DNA of 64,000 nucleotides from Mytilus edulis (taxonomy: Eukaryota), in the NCBI RefSeq assembly GCF_963676685.1, contig NC_092352.1:71052001-71116000 (forward strand), in the 5' to 3' direction. The translations under genes were made by a program, and so were the position numbers. Positions within the stretch are counted from its first letter, which is position 1. Each line of letters opens with the position of its first letter. A model generated the notes under the pieces. That model was not told where the DNA came from. It made no database searches and saw nothing but the letters and a program-made list of their open reading frames with translations. This document shows positions 19,301 to 64,000 of the stretch, one piece after another.

Positions 19301-22300
19301 AAATTGTCGATATTAAAGAATTGGGACATGATGATTCCAAACGAGATGTAATTTGCAAGATCGTAAATGCAAAGAACATACCACACAAATCTGTGGATTT
19401 TATTGTAAAGATTGTAAACAATTTATCTGTGGCAAGTGCATTACAAAAGACCACTGTGGACATGATGCAGTAGATGAAGAAGAATATGAACATGAAATGG
19501 CCATGCTTCTTGCATCTCAGAAAGAGGCTGAGAGGAAGTTCAGAGAGCTAACCCTATCAAATCCAAGTGCAGTAAGTTCATATAAATCTGGATCCACAGA
19601 AATGGCAGAAGTAAGAATTATATTGATTAGACAATTTTCCACAGAATTTACCCGAATTTCCAAGGTCTTATCCACTACTGATGATTCTGCGTGGATAGTA
19701 AACCCGTCAGCTAAATTGATGCAGCATGTGAAAATGACAGAAGGCGGTCTCCAGGTCCTATCAGAGTTCAAAATGCACATTGGTGACATGGAATATATGT
19801 CAAAAAACAAGATATTTTTATCAGTTGGTGGTACACCATGGCTGCAGCTGCTTGATGAACAAATTGGAAAAATATCTTTTACCCACTACAATTTTAAACC
19901 CCTGTGGACTCGTGGCATACATGTAACAAGGGATCAGAAAATAATCATAGGAGCTGTCACACCAGGTTTACCAATCACTTTTTCCAGAAGACGTTTAGTG
20001 GTAGTCATGGATATTGACGGGACCGTTTTTAAACGATATGAATTTGACTGTAATCAGAAACCATTGTTTACACTTCCTTACAAAATAACTAGCACAAGTA
20101 ATGGTAACATCTGGGTGATAGATAAGTTAGCTACAACTGGTAGGGGTAGAGTGGTAGTGTTGGGACAGGCAGGAAACGGTATACATGTACAAATATACAA
20201 TGGTCATCATGATGTTAACTCGCATAGCAAACCATTCACTCCTACAGGCATAATTATTACACCCGCAGATAATGTAGTTGTGGCAGACAATGCCTGTAAT
20301 ACACTACATATACTCAACTGTGATGGCACATTCATGACATACATAAAAACTGATGGTATAGGGATTATATCCCCGTATTCTCTTGCCATATCTGGACCAG
20401 GACAATTCATTATAGGATGTGCTTCTAAAGGTTCTGTGAAAGCTAAACTTTATCAGCTACAATACTCTGGATTTTAAATGATAGTTTTTTAACTTGCTAA
20501 TGTTTTAGAATGGAATATATTCAACTCTTGTCTGAATGATATATATATATTAGTTGTTATCCATTTTGATGACTATACAAATTTAATGTAAGGAATTAAA
20601 TAAGTTTATCAGATTGCAATTTTCTTTTTTGAGAAACTCACCTAGTAGCATTAAATGCATTAATAAAAACTTAAAGTATTAATTTCTGCATTTAAAGTAT
20701 CAAAGAACCCTTAAAACTAGCAATAATCCTCTTCTTGTAATTCCCCCTGCCGTAGCGGAGGGGGCATTAAGTTTAACCCTTGTCTGTCTGTACAAGGCAT
20801 AGTTTAGGTTTCAGTTCTGTAACTTTAATTTGCCTCAATTAAATGTTATGAAACATAATGCTTATAACCACATGACACAGATCTAGTTTAAAATTTAGTG
20901 TTGTCATTTTATCGGTTCTAGAATTGTGTTCTCTTACTTTAGTTTGCCTCAACCAAATGCTATATGAAAATTATACACTATGTTTAAAATCATTACCACA
21001 AAATACAGATCAAGTGGGAATTTTGGTGGTGTCACTTTAACAGTTCTAAACTTATGCCCTTTTACAAATGGAAAAATTGCTGATCTTTTTGTTTCTGTTC
21101 TCTAACTTAAGTTTACCTCAACCAAATTTAGAAAACTGTATATACACTTATTACCACAACACTCAGATCAAGTACACAATTGGGTAAGGTCACATTTACG
21201 GTTCATCAGTTATGTCCCTTTATTATAAACTTTATTTAATATGCATGCGGGGTATCATCTGTGTCCCATGGACAACATTCCCCATTTATCTTTTTTTTCA
21301 ATTTACCTAACACAAATTATTTAATATTTTGCTTTATCTAGAAGATAAATTTGAGCAGGATGTTTTGTAAATCAAAGTATAATCAGCAAGTTAATCTTAA
21401 TAAATAAATAACAGTATCTTACTCATTATGTACATGTTACTATCTCCTACTTTACATATGGAAAATTATCAGTTTTGTATAAAAGACATCAAGCTCATAT
21501 GAATGATAAATTAGATTTTATAAGTGTTCAGTTCAGCTAAAATCAGTTTACATTCATTTTGTCAACACTATGGGGTACTCACAGTCAACACATAAGGCCC
21601 CTAACTCTGTCAGATACCAGTTGTGTGAGGGAGGGACACGACCAATCCAATGGAAATGCTGGGAATGCTCATTACTGATGTGTAGAAGATGTAGAAGTGT
21701 AGTCCATCCTATGTTAAATTATGCTGTCAGACATAAAATAGTTTTTATTAAAGAATCAAAAAGTGGTACTGCTGAAGGAAATGTTTCTTTTAGTGATTAT
21801 AAGTGCCTAGCACATACCTCAAAGATTTGCTGTTTTTATTGTAAGGATTGTGAACAATTAATCTGTAGGAAGTGTTCAACCAAAGCCCATCGAGGACATG
21901 ATACTTTGAACGAGGAGGACTATGTAAGAGAAATTAACAAGATTCTGAAAACTCTTAGAGAGAGTGAGAAGAAATTGAGCAATTTTACCTTGGCCAACAT
22001 TGTACTTGGAAAATTAAATTCATTAAAATCTGGAGCATCAGAGAAACCTGAGATTAAAGTTTTTAAAACATTTTCCTCGAACGTTAAATTTATTAGTTCG
22101 GTTATATCTTCTCCTGATGATTCAGTATGGATAGTAGACTTTTCAGCTAAAGTTTTGCAGCAAGTGAAACTGACAGGAGACAATATTCAGGTCATTTCAC
22201 AATGNNNNNNNNNNNNNNNNNNNNNNNNNNNNNNNNNNNNNNNNNNNNNNNNNNNNNNNNNNNNNNNNNNNNNNNNNNNNNNNNNNNNNNNNNNNNNNNN

Positions 22301-25300
22301 NNNNTGCACAAATAGCAACCACTGAATTAGGTTCCTGAATTGCGACATGCCTATCATTTCTTTTCATTTCATTGGAGGGTAAAATCCTGTTGACAGCATT
22401 ACAAAGGTTACGATACTTGGGTTGTACTCTTAAATTGTATATCTAGCAATACTATATGTTAGGTAGTACTCTTACTCAAATACCTAAACTAACAGGGGCG
22501 GATGCAGGAATTTTCGAAAGGGGGGGGGGGGGGGGGGGGGGGGGTGCTAACCCAGGGCACCCAGGGCAAAGGGGGGGTGCAAAACATATGTCCCGATACA
22601 AATGCATTGATCGGCAAAAATAAAGGGGGGGGTTGCGCACCCCCGGAAACCCCCCCCCCCCCCCCCCCCCCCCCCCCTGGATCCACCACTGACTACATCC
22701 TTAAAATTTTTACTGGGAAAAATATAAGTTGTTTATTGGTTGATGTGGTCTATTGTATTGTGTATTTTTTTGGGCGACTGCTTTTATCCCATTTTATTTT
22801 TATATGATAAAAAAAAAGTGAGTTTAAAATGAGGATTGATTTTTAATATGATATTAAGTAATCTGAACAACTGATCAACATCATATATTTATTATCAGCA
22901 ATTGTTTACTTTTATGGTGACATACATAACACATAAATAGACATATCATGTGCTGCATCTGATTGTGTACCTCACTTAGTTATATTTATATGATTAGTTC
23001 AGTTTTGTTTATTGTACAATTTGATTTTAAACAACTTATACAACTTACAATATCTCTATCAAAATGGCTGACTCAAATTTAAAAACTAAGGACAGATTGC
23101 AGTAGGATGCAGCGATAATCAAGAATCGACAAGTACTGATTCTGATGGATTTATAAGCTTTAGAGATATGAAATGCAAAGAACATGAGATGAAGGGCTGC
23201 AGCTTTTATTGTAAAGACTGTAAAGAATTTATCTGTGTCAAATGCATTACAAAAGCCCATAAAGAACATGATGTGGTAGACGAGGAAGATCATAATACTG
23301 ATAGGAACAAGCTGCTAAAAACTCAGAAGGAAACAGCGATAGAACTTAGCAAGATGTCATTGTCCAAAGTTAGTCCAATGACATCTGGATCTACAGTGGT
23401 GAAAGATGAAACAGAACAACAACAAAAACCTGAGTTAAAAGTTGTCCAACATATTTATACAGATTATAAACCTATTTATGGTTTGTCATCCTATTCAGAT
23501 GGTTTAGTATTGCTAAAAACTCATTGTTATGGAAATCTGGAATATGCGGAAGTGACAGGAGACAATATTAAGGTCCTATCCAGTTTCCCTGTTCAAGTGT
23601 TAGACATGACAGTTGATTCAATCAACAACATTTTTTTATCAGTTCAAAGCAGTACAAGACTGAAGGTGATCAATGTAATAACTGGGCAAATATCAGATTC
23701 TATATACAATGTAGCACCATTTTGGACCAGTGGTATACATATTACCAAAGATCAAAAAGTAATATTAGGAGTAGTAACACCAGGAAGACAAATGGTGGTA
23801 GTCATGGATGAGAAAGGGAATCATATAAAACTTTATGAACTTGACAGCACCAACAAAGCAATATTTACAGGTCCTTGCAGAATAACTAGCACCAAAAATG
23901 GTAACATCGGGGTGGTAGATGTTTTGGATACATCATGCAGAGGAAAAATAGTGGTACTGGGACAGACAGGAAGCATACAAATATACAATGGACATCCTAA
24001 TGTCAACAATCAGAACACGCCATTTAATCCTACAGGTATCCTTACAACACCAATGGATAATATTGTAGTGACTGACTGTAATAATCATACACTGCATATA
24101 CTGAGTTGTGATGGATTATTCATAGCATACTTCAGCACTAGTTTAAATGTAGATATACACTTACCATATTCTCTTGCTTGCTCTGGACCAAGATATTTCT
24201 ATATTGGATGTTCAGTAGGAGGCTACGGTTCTATGAGTACTAAACTTTTCAAAGTGCAGTACTCTGGATTTTGAAAAATTAAAAAACAATTATATAAGTT
24301 TTTAATTTCACAGTTTAATGCTGGTGTTTTCAAAATTGAATTGGTATGACTTTGTGACCAATTTTAACATTTATTCAAACTGGTCAATTACAAACTTTTA
24401 ATTATATTGCACATTGTTGAATACTAAGAAATGAAAATGAACATTAGATTTTGAACTCCCAAATATTTTTACCTCTAGCATTATTGACAACATTAATTGT
24501 TGAAATGTGCATCTGGTGCATTGAGATTGGTAATGTTAAAAGTTATTGTGCTTTTAACTATGCAAAATAAAATGAAAGACATGTTACTATTTTGAAATAC
24601 TAATTGTTTTAAAGGCATGTGTTCACTCTCAAATACTTCCTATGAGGACTCTATACTGATATGAGTGATTGACAATTTTTTTTAATTTAAAACCTTATTT
24701 ATAGTCTTTGTAATAGTTGAAAGTAATAAGCAGTAAGAAAAATTCAACTGTTTATTGACTTAATATTTGTGTTTGATTGGTACTGTAATTTTACTAAATA
24801 AAATATTTGGGTTATCTTGCATTTGTTTACACTTGTGTCAAGGAGTATTGATATATATTAGTTCTAAAAAAATAATAAATTGACTTTGAAGCTGAATTTC
24901 TCAATGCACATTGGTTTATAGATGTGATTTTGATTTGCTTTGTAACCCCCACCCCAATATTTTGCCAACATTGTTTTTTTTAATTATAGAGGAAACTGAA
25001 TAACTATTCTAACTACTAGTTACTATACTTTTTGTTGGTTTTTGTTTTGTTTGGGGGGGGGGGGGGAGTGTTGCTTTTCACTATTAGAAGCATTTTCAGT
25101 CCAATCCTATCCAATGCCAATGATGTAATTCATTGTATTTGTCACCAGCTATTGGAATGACATTTGGACATTTGTGTGAAGAGCTGGATGTCTCACATCA
25201 TATAATTTCTATCCGACATTATAAGTTTCCTTCTTGTAATTATTGTCTCATCTCCTTGACTTTGTGTTCATGGTTATTGGCTGTGGAGGAAATTGTTTGT

Positions 25301-49621: not shown

Positions 49622-50551
49622 ATGATGCATGAGGTTGAGGATTTAGTCACACCTAACGATACCTTACAAAGACACACAAGAACACAGACTGGTAATACAC
49701 TTCATGAATGTGATGTTAGTGCAAGAGAATTTAGTAAAGGTGTAGATATGAAGAAACACACGAGAACACACACTGGTGGAAACCGTCATGTATGTGATAT
49801 ATGTGGTAAAAGGTTTAGTCAGAATGGTGGTTTACAGATGCACATGAGAACGCATACGGGTCATAAACCCTATGCATGTGATGTGTGTGGTAAAGGGTTT
49901 AGTCAGAATGGTGGTTTACAGAGTCACATGAAAACACATACAGGTGATAAACCCTATGCATGTGATGTGTGTGATAAAGGATTTAGTCAGCATGGAAGTT
50001 TACAGATTCACATGAGAACACATACAGGTGATAAACCCTGTGTCTGTAATGTATGTGGTAAAGGATTTAGTCAGAATGGTAGTTTACAGATTCACATGAG
50101 AACACATACAGGTGATAAACCTCATGTCTGTGATGTATGTGGTCAAGGGTTTCGTCAGAAAAGTCATTTACGGGTTCACTTGAGAACACATACAGGTGAT
50201 AAACTTATATGTAAACTCCATGCATGTGATGTATGTGGTAAAGGGTTTAGATGGCAAGGTAATTTACGGAGACACATGAGAACACATACAGGTGATAAAC
50301 CCCATGAATGCGATGTATGTGGCAAAGATTTTAGTCATCTTGGTAATTTGCAGATTCACATCCGAAGACATACAGGTGACAAACCCCATGCATGTGATGT
50401 ATGTGGTAAAGCATTTATTGAACTTGGCGAGTTTAAGAGACACATTAGAATACATACAGGTGATAAACCTCATGACTGTGGTGTATGTGGTAAAGGGTTT
50501 ATTCAGCATTATAATTTAAAGCGTCACATGAAAATACATACAGGTGATTAA
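49622..50551 (+). CDS. C2H2 zinc-finger protein, unit A (9 intact + 1 degenerate finger)
   Basis: 309-aa open ORF with TGDKP linkers; ends at TGD* where the linker Lys is replaced by TAA. Confidence 0.8.
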   Translation: MMHEVEDLVTPNDTLQRHTRTQTGNTLHECDVSAREFSKGVDMKKHTRTHTGGNRHVCDICGKRFSQNGGLQMHMRTHTGHKPYACDVCGKGFSQNGGLQSHMKTHTGDKPYACDVCDKGFSQHGSLQIHMRTHTGDKPCVCNVCGKGFSQNGSLQIHMRTHTGDKPHVCDVCGQGFRQKSHLRVHLRTHTGDKLICKLHACDVCGKGFRWQGNLRRHMRTHTGDKPHECDVCGKDFSHLGNLQIHIRRHTGDKPHACDVCGKAFIELGEFKRHIRIHTGDKPHDCGVCGKGFIQHYNLKRHMKIHTGD

Positions 50552-52734: not shown

Positions 52735-54297
52735 GTGAATTATAATTTAAAGCTTCATATGAAAACGCACACAGGCGATACAATTCATGACTGTGGTGTA
52801 TGTGGTAAAGAATTTAATCGGTATAGTAGTTTACAGATTCACATGAGAACACATACAGGTGATACACATACACGTGATACACCTTATGTCTGTGATGTAT
52901 GTGGTAAAGGATTTAGTCAGAATGGTAGTTTACAGATTCACACGAGAACACATACAGGCGATTAACTCCGTTAATGTGATGTATGTGGTAAATGATTTAG
53001 TCAACATGGTAGTTTTAAGATTCACATGAGAACACATGCAGGTGACAAACCTTATGTCTATGATGTATGTGGTAAAAGATTTAATCAGCATGAAAGTTTA
53101 CAGATTCACATGAGAACACATGCAGGTGACTTAATCCGTGAATGTGATGTACGTGGTAAATGATTTAGTCAACATGGTAGTTTTAAGATTCACATGAGAA
53201 CACATGCAGGTGACAAACCTTATGTCTATGATGAATGTGGGAAAGGGTTTAGTCAGAATAGTAGTTTACAGATTCACATGAAAATGCATACAGGTGATTA
53301 ATTCCGTGAATGTGATGTATGAAAAGGACTTAGTCAGCATGGTAGTTTACAGATTCACATGAGAACACTTGCAGATGATAAACCCCATGTATTTGGTAAA
53401 GGATTTAGTCAGCATGGTAGTTTACATATTCACACGAGAACACATTCAGGTGATAAAACCCATGTCTGTGATGTATGTGGTAAAGGATTTAGTCGGCATT
53501 GTAGATTACAGATTCACACGACAACACATTCGGGTGATTAACTCCATGACTGTGATGTATTTGGTAAAGGATTTGTTCTGTATGGTTGTTTACAGATTCA
53601 CATGAGAACATATGCAGGTGATTTACCCCGTGTCTATGATGTATGTGGTAAAGGATATAGGAAGTATGGTAGTTTACAGATTCACATGAGAACACAATAT
53701 GTGTTTACCCCGTGTCTGTGATGTATGTTATTAAGGATTTAGTCAGTATGGTAGTTTACAGATTAACATGAGAACACATACAGGTGTTTAACCCCGTCTC
53801 TGTAATGTATAATGTTATAAGGGATTTAGTCAGTATGGTAGTTTACAGATTAACATGAGAACACAACATGTGATTTACGCCGTGTCTGGGATGTATGTGG
53901 TAAAGGATTTAATCAGTGTGGTACTTAACAGATTCACATGAGAACACATTCAGGTGTTTAACCCCGTCTCTGTGATGTATAATGTTATAAAGGATTTAGT
54001 TAGTATGGTACTTAACAGATTCACATGAGAACACAACATGTGATTTACCCCGTGTCTGTGATGTATGTGGTAAAGGATTTAGTCAGTATGGTACTTAACA
54101 GATTCACATGAGAACACATTCAGGTGTTTAACCCCGTCTCTGTGATGTACAATGTTATAAAGGATTTAGTCAGTATGGTACTTAACAGATTCACATGAGA
54201 ACACAACATGTGATTTACCCCGTGTCTGTGATGTATGTTATGAAGGATTCAGTCAGCATGGTACTTAAAAGATTCACACGAGAACAAATGTAGGTAA
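52735..54297 (+). pseudogene. Zinc-finger unit B, 5'-deleted pseudogene
   Basis: The upstream region (agaagtga, 52738) is joined directly to the QHYN-type finger; many stops; ~169-bp dimer repeats at ~53700-54240. Confidence 0.8.
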
Positions 54298-56164: not shown

Positions 56165-58230
56165 ATGCAGGAGGTTGAGGATTTAGTCACACCTAATGAT
56201 ACCTTACAAAGACACACAAGAACGCAGACTGGTAATACACTGCATAAATGTGATGTTAGTGTCAGAGAATTTAGTAAAGGTGTAGAAATGAAGAAACACA
56301 CGAGAACACACACTGGTGGAAACCGTCATGTATGTGATATATGTGGTAAAAGGTGTAGTCAGAATGGTGGTTTACAGATGCACATGAGAACGCATACGGG
56401 TGATAAACCCTATGCATGTGATGTGTGTGGTAAAGGATTTAGGCAGCAAGTTCATTTACAGAGTCACATGAAAACACATACAGGTGGTGATAAACACTAT
56501 ATATGCATGTGATATATGTGGTAAGGGGTTTAGTCAGAATGGTGGTTTACAGAGTCACTTGAGAACACATACAGGTGATAAACCTCATGTTTGTGATGTG
56601 TGTGGTAAAGGATTTAGTCAGAATTGTGGTTTACAGATTCACATGAAAACATATACAGGTGATAAACCCTGTGCATGTGATGTGTGTGGTAAAGGGTTTA
56701 AACGGAATGCTGGTTTACAAATTCACATGAAAACACATACAGGTGATAAACCCTATGCATGTGATGTATGTGGTAAAGGGTTTAGTCGGCAAGGTTATTT
56801 ACGGATTCACATGAAAACACATACAGGTGATAAACCCTATGTCTGTGATGTATGTGGTAAAGGATTTAGTCAGAATGGTAGTTTACAGATTCACATGAGA
56901 ACACATACAGGTGATAAACCTCATGTCTGTGATGTATGTGGTCAAGGGTTTAGTCAGCAAGGTCATTTACGGGTTCACTTGAGAACACATACAGGTGAGA
57001 AATTTATATATAAACTCCATGCATGTGTTGTATGTGGTAAAGGGTTTAGTCGGCAAGGTCATTTACGGGTTCACATGAAAACTAATACAGGTGATAAACC
57101 CCATGTATGTGATGTATGTGGTAAAGCAATTATTGAACTTGGCGAGTTAAAGAGACACATTAGAATACATACAGGTGATAAACCTCATGACTGTGGTGTA
57201 TGTGGTAAAGGGTTCATTCAGCATTATAATTTATAGCTTCATATGAAAACACATACAGGCGATAAAATTCATGACTGTGGTGTATGTGGTAAAGAATTTA
57301 TTCGGTATAGTAGTTTACAGATTCACATGAGAACACATACAGGTGATACACCTCATGTCTGTGATGTATGTGGCAAAGGATTTAGTCAGAATGGTAGTTT
57401 ACATATTCACAAGAAAATACATACAGGCGATTAACTCCGTGAATTTGATGTATGTGGTAAAAGATTAAGTCAGCATGAAAGTTTACAGATATATATGAGA
57501 GCACATACAGATGATTAACTCTATGTCTGTGATGTGTGTGGTAAAGGATTTAGTTTACATGGTAGTTTACAGATTCACACGAGAACACTTGCAGATGATT
57601 AACCTTATGACTGTGATGTATGTGGTGAAGGATTTAGTCAGAATGGTAGTTGACAGATCCACATGAGATAAACCTCGTGCATGTCTTTGATGTGTGTGGT
57701 AAAGGGTTTAGTCGGAAAAATTGTTTACAGATTCACATGAAACACATACAGGTGATAAACTGCATGCATGTGATGTATGTTGCAAACGATTTAGTCGTCT
57801 AAGTAAATTGCAGATCCACATTCAAAGACATACAGGTAACAAACCCCATAAATGTGATGTATGTGGTAAAGGATTTAATCAGCATGGTCGTTTACAAATT
57901 CACACGAGAACACATCCCGTGTCTGTGATGTATGTGAAATAGGATTTATTAGCATGGTAATTTACTGATTCACATGAGAACACATGCAGGTGATTAACCC
58001 CATGTCTGTGATGTATGTGGTAAAGGATACAGATTCACATGCTCGAAAACACATGCAGGTGATGATCTCTGTGAATGTGATGTATGTGGTAAAGGGTTTA
58101 GTCAGCATGGTAGTTTACAGATTCACATGAGAACACATGCAGGTGATAAACCCCATGTCTATGATGTATGTGGTAAAGGGTTTAGTCAGCAAGGTACTAA
58201 ACCGATTCTCATGAGAACACATGCAGGTAA
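56165..58230 (+). pseudogene. Zinc-finger unit C: frameshifted ORF plus degenerate tail
   Basis: ATG at 56165 (MQEVEDLVTP); +7-nt slippage at ~56484-56505; TAG at 57234-57236; dead fingers to ~58230. Confidence 0.8.
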
Positions 58231-59669
58231 CTAGTTGCAGTATACATAATTGTATTATATGTCTCTACAGGTACTTTTCTCAGACTTTGTTTCCCCTATA
58301 TACCTTAACACTGTTATATTAAGGTATATAGGGAAAACAATGAGACAAGTACCTGTGTATGTCTCTGGTTGTATAATGTGTCTCTAGTATCGCTATACAT
58401 GCAACTCCTTGCTTTTTATGTTAAACCGTGTGATATTTTGACTTAAGTTCAAATAAAGTATTTCCATGTCAAAACTAAACCTTATTCTGACATGTGTGGA
58501 CAATGCAGCATATAAGCTGATTAGAGCTACTGGTTTTAGAGTACAGAAACCGATAATTCTTATTTGAGCACAGTGCAAATATGCTCTCCTATTTAAAAAA
58601 TTTTTTTCAAAAGAAGCTTTCAACAAGGGTTCTGCGGCTATCCAAAGTCCGTAGGCTTTCATTTGATATCAAGACTTACCGAAATATGTTACTTGTTGTT
58701 TTGTTTTAAATATGTACCTCTGTCTGATCTGGTACTAATTAGTAGTGCAGTATACCTATTTATAACTGAACCAAAATAAAATGACTTCTGTTTTACACAA
58801 TGAAAACTATATATGGATAATAATAGTGACTATGTGACTCAGACTTTTCCCATTAACACCAGTTCTAATTTGTTAATATCTACTCAAATAAAAAATGTCT
58901 TACCTAAGTGTCTTTCCTTTTGTCATCAGATTGTTTATTGAATATGAATATAAAAGTCTTTGCATCAAATATAAATGAGATTTTTGTCCACATTTTTGGA
59001 ACTAACGGGAAGTTTGTTTTTTATCAAACCGGCATACCTCAATATAATCTGGGACTATTATACTAACATAGTCTCATAGTCTCAGATATAATTACATTTA
59101 TCAAGAGCAATTTATTTATCTCAAAGCTAAATGACTGCGAGTAGGTCTGAAAAAAAAGACGAAACTTATTTCAAAACCAAAAGAGAAAAAAAGCCTGAAC
59201 ATTAGACATACACAACATATATTATTACATAACAAAACCAAATGAGAACTTCATTTTATGAATATTCTATATACAATTTATTTTACAATCATCTTTGCCA
59301 ATCATTCATATGAAATTTGGACAAATTGTTGTACATGAAGAATTAAACAATAAAAGAAGTGACCACTGGCAAAAATTAAAGTGACCATTACTCCAATTAT
59401 GTAAATGTATCCTGCAGACAAATATTAACCTTTTAAAGAACATGGAAGATCAAATGTTATAAAAACATACTAGCAACGTCTGAGAATCAAGCATTTAATA
59501 TCATTATTCACTACACGTTGACATCTAAGTATTTAAACGATTCCGGACCAGTGTGACCATTGTAAAGATTTTTACTTTCGATCATTCGAATTTTTGTATT
59601 TCTTGTAAAACGATATTATTCATTTCACTTCACATTCGTTTAAATTTGAGAACAATCCGTATTGATAGG

Positions 59670-62169
59670 ATGGATGAGGTTGAGGATTTAGTCACACCTA
59701 ACGATACATTACAAAGACACACAAGAACACAGACTGGTAATACACTTCATAAATGTGGTGTTAGTGCCAGAGAATTTAGTAAAGGTGTAACCTTGAAGAG
59801 ACACACGAGAACAAACACTGGCGAAAACCGTCATCATGTATGTGATGTATGTGGTAAAGGGTTTAGTCAGAATGGTAGTTTACAGATGCACATGAGAACG
59901 CACACGGGTGATAAACCCTATGCATGTGATGTATGTGATAAAGGATTTAGTCAGCATGGAAGTTTACAGATTCACATGAGAACACATACAGGTGATACAC
60001 CTCATGTCTGTGATGTATGTGGTAAAGGATTTAGACATCATGTTGGTTTACAGAATCACATGAGAACGCATACAGGTGATAAACCCCATACATGTGATAT
60101 ATGTGACAAAGGCTTTAGTTGAAAAGACGTTTTACAAATTCACATGAAAACACATACAGGTGATAAACCCCATGCATGTGATGTATGTGGTAAAGGGTTT
60201 AGTCGGCAAGGTCATTTACGGGTTCACATGAAAACACATACAGGTGATACACCCCATGTATGTGATGTATGTGGCAAACATTTTAGTCATCTTAGTAATT
60301 TGCAGAGTCACATTCGAAGACATACAGGTGAAAAACCCCATGCATGTGATGTATGTGGTAAAGGATTTATTGAACCTGGCGAGTTTAAGAGACACATTAG
60401 AATACATACAGGTGATAAACCTCATGACTGTGGTGTATGTGGTAAAGGGTTTATTCAGCATTATAATTTAAAGCGTCACATGAAAATACATACAGGCGAC
60501 TAAATTCATGACTGTGGTGTATGTGGTAAAGAATTTATTCGGTATAGTAGTTTACAGATTCACATGAGAACACATACAGGTGATACACCTTATGTCTGTG
60601 ATGTATGTTATAAAGGATTTAGTCAGCATGGTAGTTTACAGATTCACATGAAAATACATACAGGCGATTAACTCCGTGAATGTGATGTATGTGGTAAATG
60701 ATTTAGTCAACATGGTAGTTTTAAGATTCACATGAGAACACATGCAGGTGACAAACCTTATGTCTATGATGTATGTGGTAAAAGATTTAATCAGCATGAA
60801 AGTTTACAGATTCACATGAGAACACATGCAGGTGACTTACTCCGTGAATATGATGTACGTGGTAAATGATTTAGTCAACATGGTAGTTTTAAGATTCACA
60901 TGAGAACACATGCAGGTGACAAACCTTATGTCTATGATGTATGTGGTAAAAGATTTAATCAGCATGAAAGTTTACAGATTCACATGAGAACACATGTAGG
61001 TGACTTACTCCGTGAATATGATGTACGTGGTAAATGATTTAGTCAACATGGTAGTTTTAAGATTCACATGAGAACACATGCAGGTGACAAACCTTATGTC
61101 TATGATGTATGTGGTAAAAGATTTAATCAGCATGAAAGTTTACAGATTCACATGAGAACACATGCAGGTGACTTACTCCGTGAATATGATGTACGTGGTA
61201 AATGATTTAGTCAACATGGTAGTTTTTATATTCACATGAGAACACATGCAGGTGACAAACCTTATGTCTATGATGTATGTGGGAAAGGGTTTACTCAGCA
61301 TGGTAGTTTACAGATTCACATGAGAACACATGCAGGTGACTTACTCCGTGAATATGATGTACGTGGTAAATGATTTATTCAACATGGTAGTTTACACGAG
61401 AATACATGCAGATGATAATTCAAATGTCTGCGTGTATGTGGTAAAGGATTTAATCAGTATGGTAGTTTACACAGTCATACGAGAACACATTCAGGTGATA
61501 AACCTCCTGTCTGAGATGTATGTGGTAAATAGTTTAGTCACCATGGTAGTTTACAGATTCACATGAGAAAACATTCATATGGTTAACCCCATGTATGTGA
61601 TGTATGTGGTAAAGGATAAGTCAGCATGGTAGTTTACAGATTCACCTGAGAACACACTCAGGTGATAAATCTCATGTCTGTGATGTATGCGGTAAAGGGT
61701 TTACTCAGCATTATAATTTAAAGCTTCATATGAAAACACATACAGACGATAAAATTCATGACTGTTGTGTATATGGTAAAGGATTTAATCGTTATAGTAG
61801 TTCACAGATTCACATGAGAACACATACAGGTGATAAACCTCATGTCTGTGATGTATAAAGTAAAAGCTTTAGACAGCAAGGTCATTTACGGGTTCACTTG
61901 AGAACACATACAGGTGATAAATTTATATATAAACTCAATGTATGTGATGTATGTGGTAAAGGGTTTAGTCGGCAAGGTCATTTACGGATGCACATGAAAA
62001 CACATACAGGTGATAAACTCCATACATGTACATGTGATGTATGTGGTAAAGGGTTTAGTCGGCAAGATCATTTACGGATTCACATGAAAACACATACAGG
62101 TGATAAACTCCATGTATGTGATGTATGTGGTAAAGGGTTTAGTCGGCAAGGTCATTTACGGATGCACAT
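59670..62169 (+). pseudogene. Zinc-finger unit D: in-frame TGA at 60120-60122, stop at 60503, long tail interrupted by the LTR
   Basis: ORFs 59553-60122 and 60144-60503 share a frame; the tail contains 168-bp dimer repeats. Confidence 0.8.
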
Positions 62170-62763
62170 TGTTATGATATTGTAATTATTGTATTTATTT
62201 ATGTTGGCCTGATTTGTATTGTGTGGCCTGATAGTTGTTTGCAGAATAATTTTAGAAATGTGCAGTTTAGAAATCTCTGGAACAATTAGAGAATGATTGG
62301 AACTTTCCAGAATGATCATTATAAAAGATGTGTTATATAAACTTCTACCGTTTACTAGAAACTTCCGTTGTAACTTTCTAGGATGTTCCATTATAGAGTG
62401 TTCTAGAATTTTCCTTGACAATTATATATATACAGACACTAAAGTTAAACACACACTCTTGGGTTTGGACTTAGCCATTGATAGACATTAGTATTCACCG
62501 CATTTGGATTGACACTTTAATTCTACAAACAACATCATACTGGATTGTGACCGTAGTAGTGAACGTAATATTCAGATTGGATTCCGAAAGATATCCGGAT
62601 ACAGATAAAGATAAAAGATTGGACTCATATTTTAACAGTTAAGTTAACAGTAATATCTGTGTAATACTTCTTGTAAACTTTTGTATAATAAATATTGTTA
62701 AATTTTACTATTGATTTGTGTCTTTTGTTGGCTACAATTTAAAGGCGATTTCTGGCCGTAACA
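62170..62763 (+). repeat. 5' LTR (594 bp)
   Basis: TGTTA...TAACA termini; TATA-like run at 62423-62432; AATAAA at 62687-62692; followed by the PBS. Confidence 0.88.
62269..62414 (+). promoter_or_regulatory. Cluster of heat-shock elements (inverted nGAAn arrays) in LTR U3
   Basis: Perfect gGAAc-tTTCc-aGAAt at 62299-62313 and gTTCt-aGAAt-tTTCc at 62400-62414; imperfect or partial arrays at 62269-62283, 62357-62366 and 62375-62389. Confidence 0.65.
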
Positions 62764-62768
62764 GAAAT

Positions 62769-62786
62769 TGGGGGCTCGTCCGGGAT
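62769..62786 (+). promoter_or_regulatory. Primer-binding site, tRNA-Pro
   Basis: TGGGGGCTCGTCCGGGAT is the 18-nt complement of the tRNA-Pro 3' end (same as the MLV PBS), 5 nt after the LTR. Confidence 0.93.
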
Positions 62787-62853
62787 CTGAAAATATCTTA
62801 TTCAAAATTTGTTTAGTAATTTTTATTATAAATAGCCAACAAAATTCTACAAA

Positions 62854-64000
62854 ATGGCATTTGATGCTGGTAAACTTTTGAAAACGCCAGACCTGGAGGG
62901 GTTTGATAATTTAAAGAAAGAGGAATTAGTGTTGCTTGCAAAGCATCTGAAATTAGATTTTAAAGTATCTATGAGAAAACAAATTATAAAAAATTTGGTT
63001 ATAGACAAATTAGTTGACGCAAAGGTTTTAGGTGAAGAGGCTCTTGAACTTAAGGTCGAAAATATTGACGCCTTTAAATTAAAACAGCTTGAATTAGAAC
63101 ATGAACTCAAATTAAAAGAACTGGAATTGAAGGAGATGGAGAAAAGAAAAGAAGATGAACTTAAATTAAAACAAGATGAACTTAAATTAAAACAGGCAGA
63201 ACTGGAAATGAAGGAAAGGTTGGAAATGGATAAAAAAGAAAAAGAAGACGAATTTAAATTAAAAGAACTTGAAATGAAGTTAAAAGAACTTGAAATGAAG
63301 GAAAGGCTAGAGATGGAGAAAATGAAAATTGAAATGGTCAAGGAAGAAAGCAACACTAAAGTCCAGCAGAAATCAGAATATTTTGATGCAGCAAAAAATA
63401 TACGTTTGGTTCCCAGTTTTTGTGAAAAAACAGTCGATAAATATTTTCCACAGTTTGAAAAAATTGCTCATAATTTGAGTTGGCCAAAGCCATATTGGAC
63501 TACAATGCTACAAAGTGTTTTGGAGGGCCGCTGAAATATACTCCGCACTTCCATCAGAAAAAAGTTCTGATTATGACACGTTGAAACAGGAAGTTTTGAA
63601 AGCTTATGAGCTAGTACCAGAAGCATATAGACAGAAATTTAGATCTTATAAAAAGTTTGATTCGCAAACCTATGAGGAATTTGCTCGGGAAAAAGAAGAT
63701 CTATTTGATAAATGGCTTACTTCAAAGAAAACAGATAACAATTTTGATAACCTAAGACAATTGATGTTATTAGAAGAGTTCAAACAATGTGTTCATTTAG
63801 ACTTAAAAACACATTTAGACGACAAAACTGTTGGGACAATACATGATGCAGCTGTAATTTCAGATAATTATACCCTTTCACATAAAAGAAGTTTCAAGGG
63901 TCAAAATGTTAATAATTCAAGTGGAAATTACAAAAATCAAAGTACTGAGCGTACTGATAGTAAGCATGTTGCACAGAATAAGAGTCAGTCCAGTTATAAT
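62854..64000 (+). pseudogene. gag: gag (coiled-coil + capsid with SCAN-like domain), frameshift at ~63526
   Basis: ORF 62854-63534 (..IRLVPSFCEKTVDKYFPQFEKIA..W..LQSVLEG) continues in the +1 frame from 63527 to the window end: AAEIYSAL..DYDTLKQEVLKAYELVPEAYRQKFR..FDKWL..LRQLMLLEEFKQCV..AAVISDNY. Confidence 0.85.

Follow-up and report, generated by a model that had tools for sequence, protein, structure and literature searches.

A Gmr1-like Gypsy element with a SCAN-matching capsid interrupts a decayed zinc-finger array in the mussel Mytilus edulis

Introduction

Does a retrotransposon capsid domain that lies ahead of a zinc-finger array in a mussel chromosome mark the origin of a new gene, or is it a chance insertion? 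The SCAN domain descends from the capsid of Gmr1-like Gypsy retrotransposons (PMC4592553, PMC8321522). According to Matsushima et al. (10.1101/2025.03.03.638093), whose survey covers 68 vertebrate genomes, it was acquired once, when a KZFP gene captured an upstream element and gave rise to the SCAN-KRAB-ZF arrangement. Since that account describes SCAN capture as a single vertebrate event, a chimeric gene in a mussel would be of consequence. Molluscs, for their part, are described as possibly holding upward of a thousand tandem zinc-finger (ZNF) open reading frames (PMC10547256). Our literature search found no paper on an invertebrate SCAN-ZNF or on the mussel locus considered here.

We analysed a stretch of 64,000 nucleotides (the window; NC_092352.1, positions 71,052,001 to 71,116,000) of the 1.37-Gb Mytilus edulis genome, together with its surroundings; coordinates above 64000 are positions on this contig (C9) minus 71,052,000. 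A preliminary description, made from the letters of the window, held that a Gypsy element with a SCAN-type capsid had inserted inside a C2H2 finger array, and that the locus was either raw material for an independent SCAN-ZNF origin or a sign that the element targets ZNF clusters. We find this interpretation partly supported. In our reading, to which we assign a probability of roughly 85%, a Gmr1-like Gypsy element inserted at an ACAT site in a stop-ridden tandem C2H2 copy; this was most likely a chance event, and the copy was likely dead by then.

Anatomy of the insertion

The element and its flanks comprise the following features.

62166..62169, plus strand: 5' copy of the target site duplication (TSD) ACAT, within the finger ...LRMH
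62170..62763, plus strand: 5' LTR, 594 bp, TG...CA, with a family-shared primer-binding-type sequence from 62764
62854..63534, plus strand: N-terminal part of gag, K/E-rich; the frame from ATG 62854 stops at 63532-63534
63617..63889, plus strand: C-terminal capsid domain with the SCAN match, in a frame that differs from that of the gag ATG
63890..64000, plus strand: rest of gag to the window end; the Gypsy element runs on past the window
64122-66493: nested BEL/Pao element in gag, with identical 186-bp LTRs and TSD ATTAC (5-bp), gag-protease only
66494-70246, plus strand: pol, in the order protease-like region, integrase, reverse transcriptase (RT), RNase H
70247-70840, plus strand: 3' LTR, beyond the window, then TSD ACAT
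70841-72090, plus strand: resumed fingers, after the 3' LTR and TSD

The LTR starts at 62170 (TGTTATG) directly after the finger codons ...LRMH and is oriented in the sense of the ZNF array, in agreement with the preliminary description. That description had also predicted, beyond the window, a 3' LTR, a TSD for which ACAT was one option, and a resumption of the fingers. The 3' LTR was found at 70247-70840, the element is flanked at either end by the 4-bp TSD ACAT, and the finger that it interrupts picks up again at 70841 as ...MKTHTGDKP, 8.7 kb past the insertion point. The 5' and 3' LTRs show 8 differences in 594 bases (98.65% identity), and the element retains a polypurine tract, a primer site, paired TG...CA LTRs and the TSD. 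The anatomy of the locus as first described is real, and we consider it confirmed.

The SCAN signature reported in gag was recovered by the Pfam profile PF02023 at 63617-63889 (E 3.5e-12; 46.4 bits, where the cut-off is 27; profile positions 1-89 of 90), and the best match of this stretch among PDB sequences is the SCAN domain of ZNF24 (E 0.012), with ZNF42 in third place (0.066). No Met precedes the SCAN stretch, whose frame is not that of the gag ATG at 62854. In pol, Integrase_H2C2 and rve (~67350-67900) lie ahead of RVT_1 (~68800-69300) and RNase H. The integrase ahead of the RT is described as the mark of the Gmr1 clade (PMC6238403), and the Gmr1-like layout is given as SCAN-PR-IN-RT-RH (10.1101/2025.03.03.638093). 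Domain order and the SCAN capsid support the assignment of the inserted element as a probable Gmr1-like Gypsy, the identity that had been proposed for it. Pol is broken: it changes frame, runs into a stop at 68547 and is disrupted within RNase H by a 205-bp insert rich in AT (69639-69843). This insert (L002:893-1097) had no second copy among the fetched loci.

The nested BEL/Pao element (L031:4122-6493) contains DUF1759, DUF1758 and a protease in an open 652-aa gag-protease frame; it is a very young, internally deleted, non-autonomous insertion. Together with the broken pol and the 3' LTR, which carries an AATAAA, it fills the 6.9 kb between the end of SCAN and the resumed fingers. SCAN and the C2H2 fingers occupy separate frames and are not one protein, and no SCAN-finger protein is readable from the locus without splicing. 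The SCAN domain remains in its LTR and pol context, the whole element being present.

The host zinc-finger cluster

The interrupted array is one of the three to four tandem units, 91-95% identical, that make up a cluster with relatives on C11, C6 and C7.

49622..50551, plus strand: paralogous ZNF unit 1, an uninterrupted 309-aa open reading frame with 9 canonical C2H2 fingers; decayed fingers extend to ~51600
56165..58240, plus strand: paralogous ZNF unit 2; the ATG frame ends after 115 aa, the fingers lie in another frame, then decay
59670..62169, plus strand: interrupted host ZNF array, a mosaic pieced together from segments of paralogs; from ATG 59670 the frame runs for 150 aa to its first stop at 60120

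Ahead of the insertion, the interrupted unit has 21 stops in the frame of ATG 59670 as well as frame changes. Several of these stops recur in the paralogous segments, and because those segments are more diverged than the two LTRs of the element, decay of the host is likely older than the insertion. The common stops, in a mosaic and possibly gene-converted array, suggest that the host copy was likely dead before the element arrived.

No N-terminal effector domain was detected with Pfam in the ZNF open reading frames scanned, unit 1 included. The non-finger parts of the Mytilus homologs P0136 and P0187 matched nothing within 200 kb of sequence around the locus; P0136 is a PR/SET-finger protein, and a PRDM9-like origin of the host cluster was considered and rejected on this ground.

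A two-finger 168-bp unit with stops is present in near-identical tandem copies at 60681-61360 and 52975-53300, in two ZNF units, which suggests recent amplification by unequal crossing-over or conversion among dead fingers. On the minus strand, opposite to the cluster direction, 41878-40772 holds an uninterrupted 369-aa frame with 11 C2H2 fingers. At 19335-24271 of the window, three B-box frames, two of them with weak NHL matches, form a TRIM-like/B-box-NHL gene cluster. A finger array of ~7 kb that is related to the host cluster and has many internal repeats lies elsewhere in the genome (G000:C6:11.417-11.426 Mb). No tRNA genes were found.

The Gmr1-like family in the mussel genome

The element is one of a large family. 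At least 150 SCAN matches were identified genome-wide (150 of the 150 scored among 214 candidates). Many of them lie in frames 1400-1600 aa long, and the exact LTR ends of the family number 396. The nearest named proteins to the gag region, among the matches listed, are Mytilus records with 93-98% identity. For 139 of the 150 SCAN matches we retrieved 10 kb of surrounding sequence; the insertion locus itself and 10 matches on small contigs were omitted. Integrase and RT follow SCAN in 131 of these 139 loci, and in 131/131 the integrase comes first; a SCAN-matching capsid is the norm of the Gmr1-like family in this genome. Three of the 139 have neither integrase nor RT. Domestication of SCAN elsewhere in the genome was considered for these three and rejected, since all keep a family LTR and primer site upstream.

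An LTR pair with a TSD was resolved in 86 of the 139 loci. After removal of 4 segmental duplicates and 1 aberrant pair, the LTRs were more alike than those of the inserted copy in 64 of 81 elements, and identical in 24, which indicates that the family has been recently active and that the inserted copy is among its older members.

Five SCAN copies (L134-L138; C7:62.43 Mb and C13:3.27-3.73 Mb) have common flanks, the TSD CCGT and 91.6% LTR identity, and are one old insertion multiplied through segmental duplication; further matches with their 1388-aa frame lie on small contigs. Head-to-tail tandem Gmr1-like elements were seen at L143/L144, L195/L196, L199/L200 and L225/L226, with a shared middle LTR in at least one case (L024).

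Public gene models (P0008, P0016, P0026, P0040 and others) fuse the SCAN-type gag to host proteins that have no relation to it: LRP5/6, SMG7, ArgRS and, in 8 records, PF00209. These gag-host fusions are likely annotation artefacts of unmasked elements, if less surely so for the recurrent PF00209 fusion. SCAN-domain gene models of the giant clam have been attributed to unmasked elements in a published account (PMC11700175), in line with which SCAN matches in bivalve annotations are likely unmasked elements; SCAN near fingers is for that reason no evidence of a gene.

Insertion preference

Both finger detectors, an HMM built from the window's fingers and a generic pattern, recovered the insertion locus, with 5-25 fingers in each half; each found C2H2 fingers in 0 of the 139 10-kb windows of other SCAN loci. 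Likewise, at 28 other LTR loci the 1.5-kb flanks held no fingers. Genome-wide, solo LTRs included, a finger linker lies within 90 bp of just one LTR end, whichever orientation is considered, and this end is that of the insertion locus (the patterns required an exact linker and tested the 3' end only). None of the 150 SCAN matches lies inside the related clusters at C11 16.9-17.5 Mb, C11 54.1-54.5 Mb and C6 11.4 Mb. The suggestion that the family targets ZNF clusters finds no backing in the two surveys of loci or in the search for a second LTR-linker junction.

The TSDs of the 86 elements vary (ATAT 11, ATGT 7, ACAT 3) and weakly favour [A/C][T/C][A/G][T/G]; 10 of the 86 are ACAT or ATGT, which are reverse complements of each other. 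The site weight of ACAT is 6.4 times background, and that of finger arrays is 1.25 versus 0.97 for the rest of the window, an enrichment of ~1.28 times. From 970 exact finger linkers in the genome (control 22), we estimate 0.08-0.4 Mb of array DNA, and for 250-750 insertions the rough probability of at least one array hit is 7-20% at the larger of these estimates and 1-4% at the smaller. The locus was picked post hoc from all types of element and gene, so that the array hit does not show targeting. Given that such a hit is uncommon, the family may nevertheless be mildly enriched in ZNF clusters, or better retained there.

Transcription and the finger frame after the 3' LTR

The resumed fingers include one open frame.

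ATG 70843 to a stop ending at 71286, plus strand: finger open reading frame of 147 aa with 4 canonical fingers, adjoining the 3' LTR, without SCAN

It also encodes one further finger that lacks the second His. No ATG occurs between the TATA-like run of the 3' LTR and the finger ATG at 70843, which has A at -3.

RNA was sampled as raw reads from 6%, 18% and 6% of three runs, from animals that may lack the insertion. Among the reads listed from these runs, none, and no joint, crosses an element-finger junction, which is weak evidence given the share of each run that was sampled, the many rows beyond those listed and animals that are possibly non-carriers. Reads on the element come mostly from other copies (under 99% alike). 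RNA depth is at most 0.23 in the bin past the 3' LTR (runs X21, X24) and 0 at 62082-62159, before the 5' LTR (X22), and loose read ends at the edge of the LTR continue into the primer site or into other flanks. As to the presence of the insertion in other animals, in run X18, which may be the source of the assembly, a 60-base piece spans the 5' junction with no difference and has just 24 letters on the LTR side, fewer than the 31 required for a junction.

In run X21, first mates at L002:1-2040 map mostly to the plus strand on the element and to the minus strand on the fingers. If the library is of the usual stranded type, the element family is transcribed mainly antisense.

Discussion

How the locus arose can be sketched as follows. 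Integration would have proceeded via the weak [A/C][T/C][A/G][T/G] preference, which is met slightly more often in finger DNA; the insertion would have persisted because the host copy was dispensable; and the Gypsy element would later have decayed and received the nested BEL/Pao insertion. A true preference of the family for ZNF clusters, or preferential retention there as for young ERVs in mammalian KZFP clusters, would account for the same picture. It draws on the somewhat improbable single hit, if array fraction alone is considered, on the enrichment of LTR elements reported for mammalian KZFP clusters (PMC13709654), and on the greater density of favoured integration sites in finger DNA. 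Finger-free surroundings at every other SCAN and LTR locus surveyed, the lack of a further LTR-linker junction and the absence of SCAN matches from the related C11 and C6 clusters nonetheless leave this preference very improbable in our judgement, and chance insertion into a dead copy the preferred reading.

Two further proposals concern a product of the locus. The 3' LTR might serve as promoter for the 147-aa frame and yield a short finger-only protein without SCAN, as the position and context of its ATG, its four canonical fingers and its termination at a stop common to a paralog would permit. An ATG-free leader is, however, expected in any LTR of the Gmr1-like family, a transcript would need to escape the poly(A) signal near the LTR end, and the listed reads, joints and loose ends give no sign of a crossing from LTR to fingers; we deem such a protein improbable, if less so than cluster preference. 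Still harder to credit is an incipient, independent SCAN-ZNF gene in which the capsid domain is spliced to the fingers that follow the element. SCAN does precede these fingers and share their strand, and by sequence comparison it resembles the SCAN structures of ZNF24 and ZNF42. Yet SCAN has no start codon ahead of it and is separated by 6.9 kb and a poly(A) signal from the fingers; these, being interrupted mid-finger, lack an exon boundary of their own; no junction RNA is listed; and C2H2 fingers occur in 0 of 120 long homologs of the SCAN region (the best 120 of 1385). The narrower proposal that carriers of the insertion splice the capsid domain of the Gmr1 element to the four fingers left intact beyond the 3' LTR, an invertebrate SCAN-ZNF at birth, merits equally little credence; if true, the mussel would provide a second case of an event believed to have taken place once, in tetrapods.

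What survives of the "raw material" claim is geometry only, given a SCAN domain cut off from its ATG, the distance and poly(A) signal between it and the fingers, a dead host frame and no listed junction read. As it stands, this decayed insertion, one among hundreds, matters little. Mussels nevertheless hold the ingredients of a SCAN-ZNF: young Gmr1 elements with SCAN are numerous, finger clusters duplicate, and the two sometimes meet.

Comparison with known systems

The nested element shares DUF1759, DUF1758, a protease and the 5-bp TSD with BEL/Pao retrotransposons, and unlike them lacks RT and integrase between its LTRs. The host element resembles the Gmr1-like clade in its SCAN capsid, protease and integrase followed by RT-RNase H, its LTRs and its 4-bp TSD, and differs in that both gag and pol are disrupted in the mussel copy and two further insertions are nested in it. 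With the "arm-in-arm" model of mammalian KZFP clusters, as outlined in PMC13709654, the locus has in common nested LTR elements inside a tandem ZNF cluster; the mussel case is single, however, and no enrichment of the family was detected.

Among the finger homologs (long proteins, best 120 of 1091), 15 combine SCAN with C2H2 fingers, all with squamate names, and the mussel SCAN stretch is 19-24% identical to the 9 of these 15 that aligned over 50 aa. The likeness to tetrapod SCAN-ZNF genes (SZFP/ZSCAN/ZKSCAN) consists in a SCAN-type domain ahead of tandem C2H2 fingers on one strand, but the mussel locus has no common open reading frame, no SCAN-finger transcript among the listed reads and no KRAB that we found. 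The parallel with the vertebrate origin of these genes was overstated in the preliminary description: in the vertebrate event, as reported, a live KRAB-ZNF gene captured an upstream element, whereas in the mussel an element split the finger exon of a dead copy.
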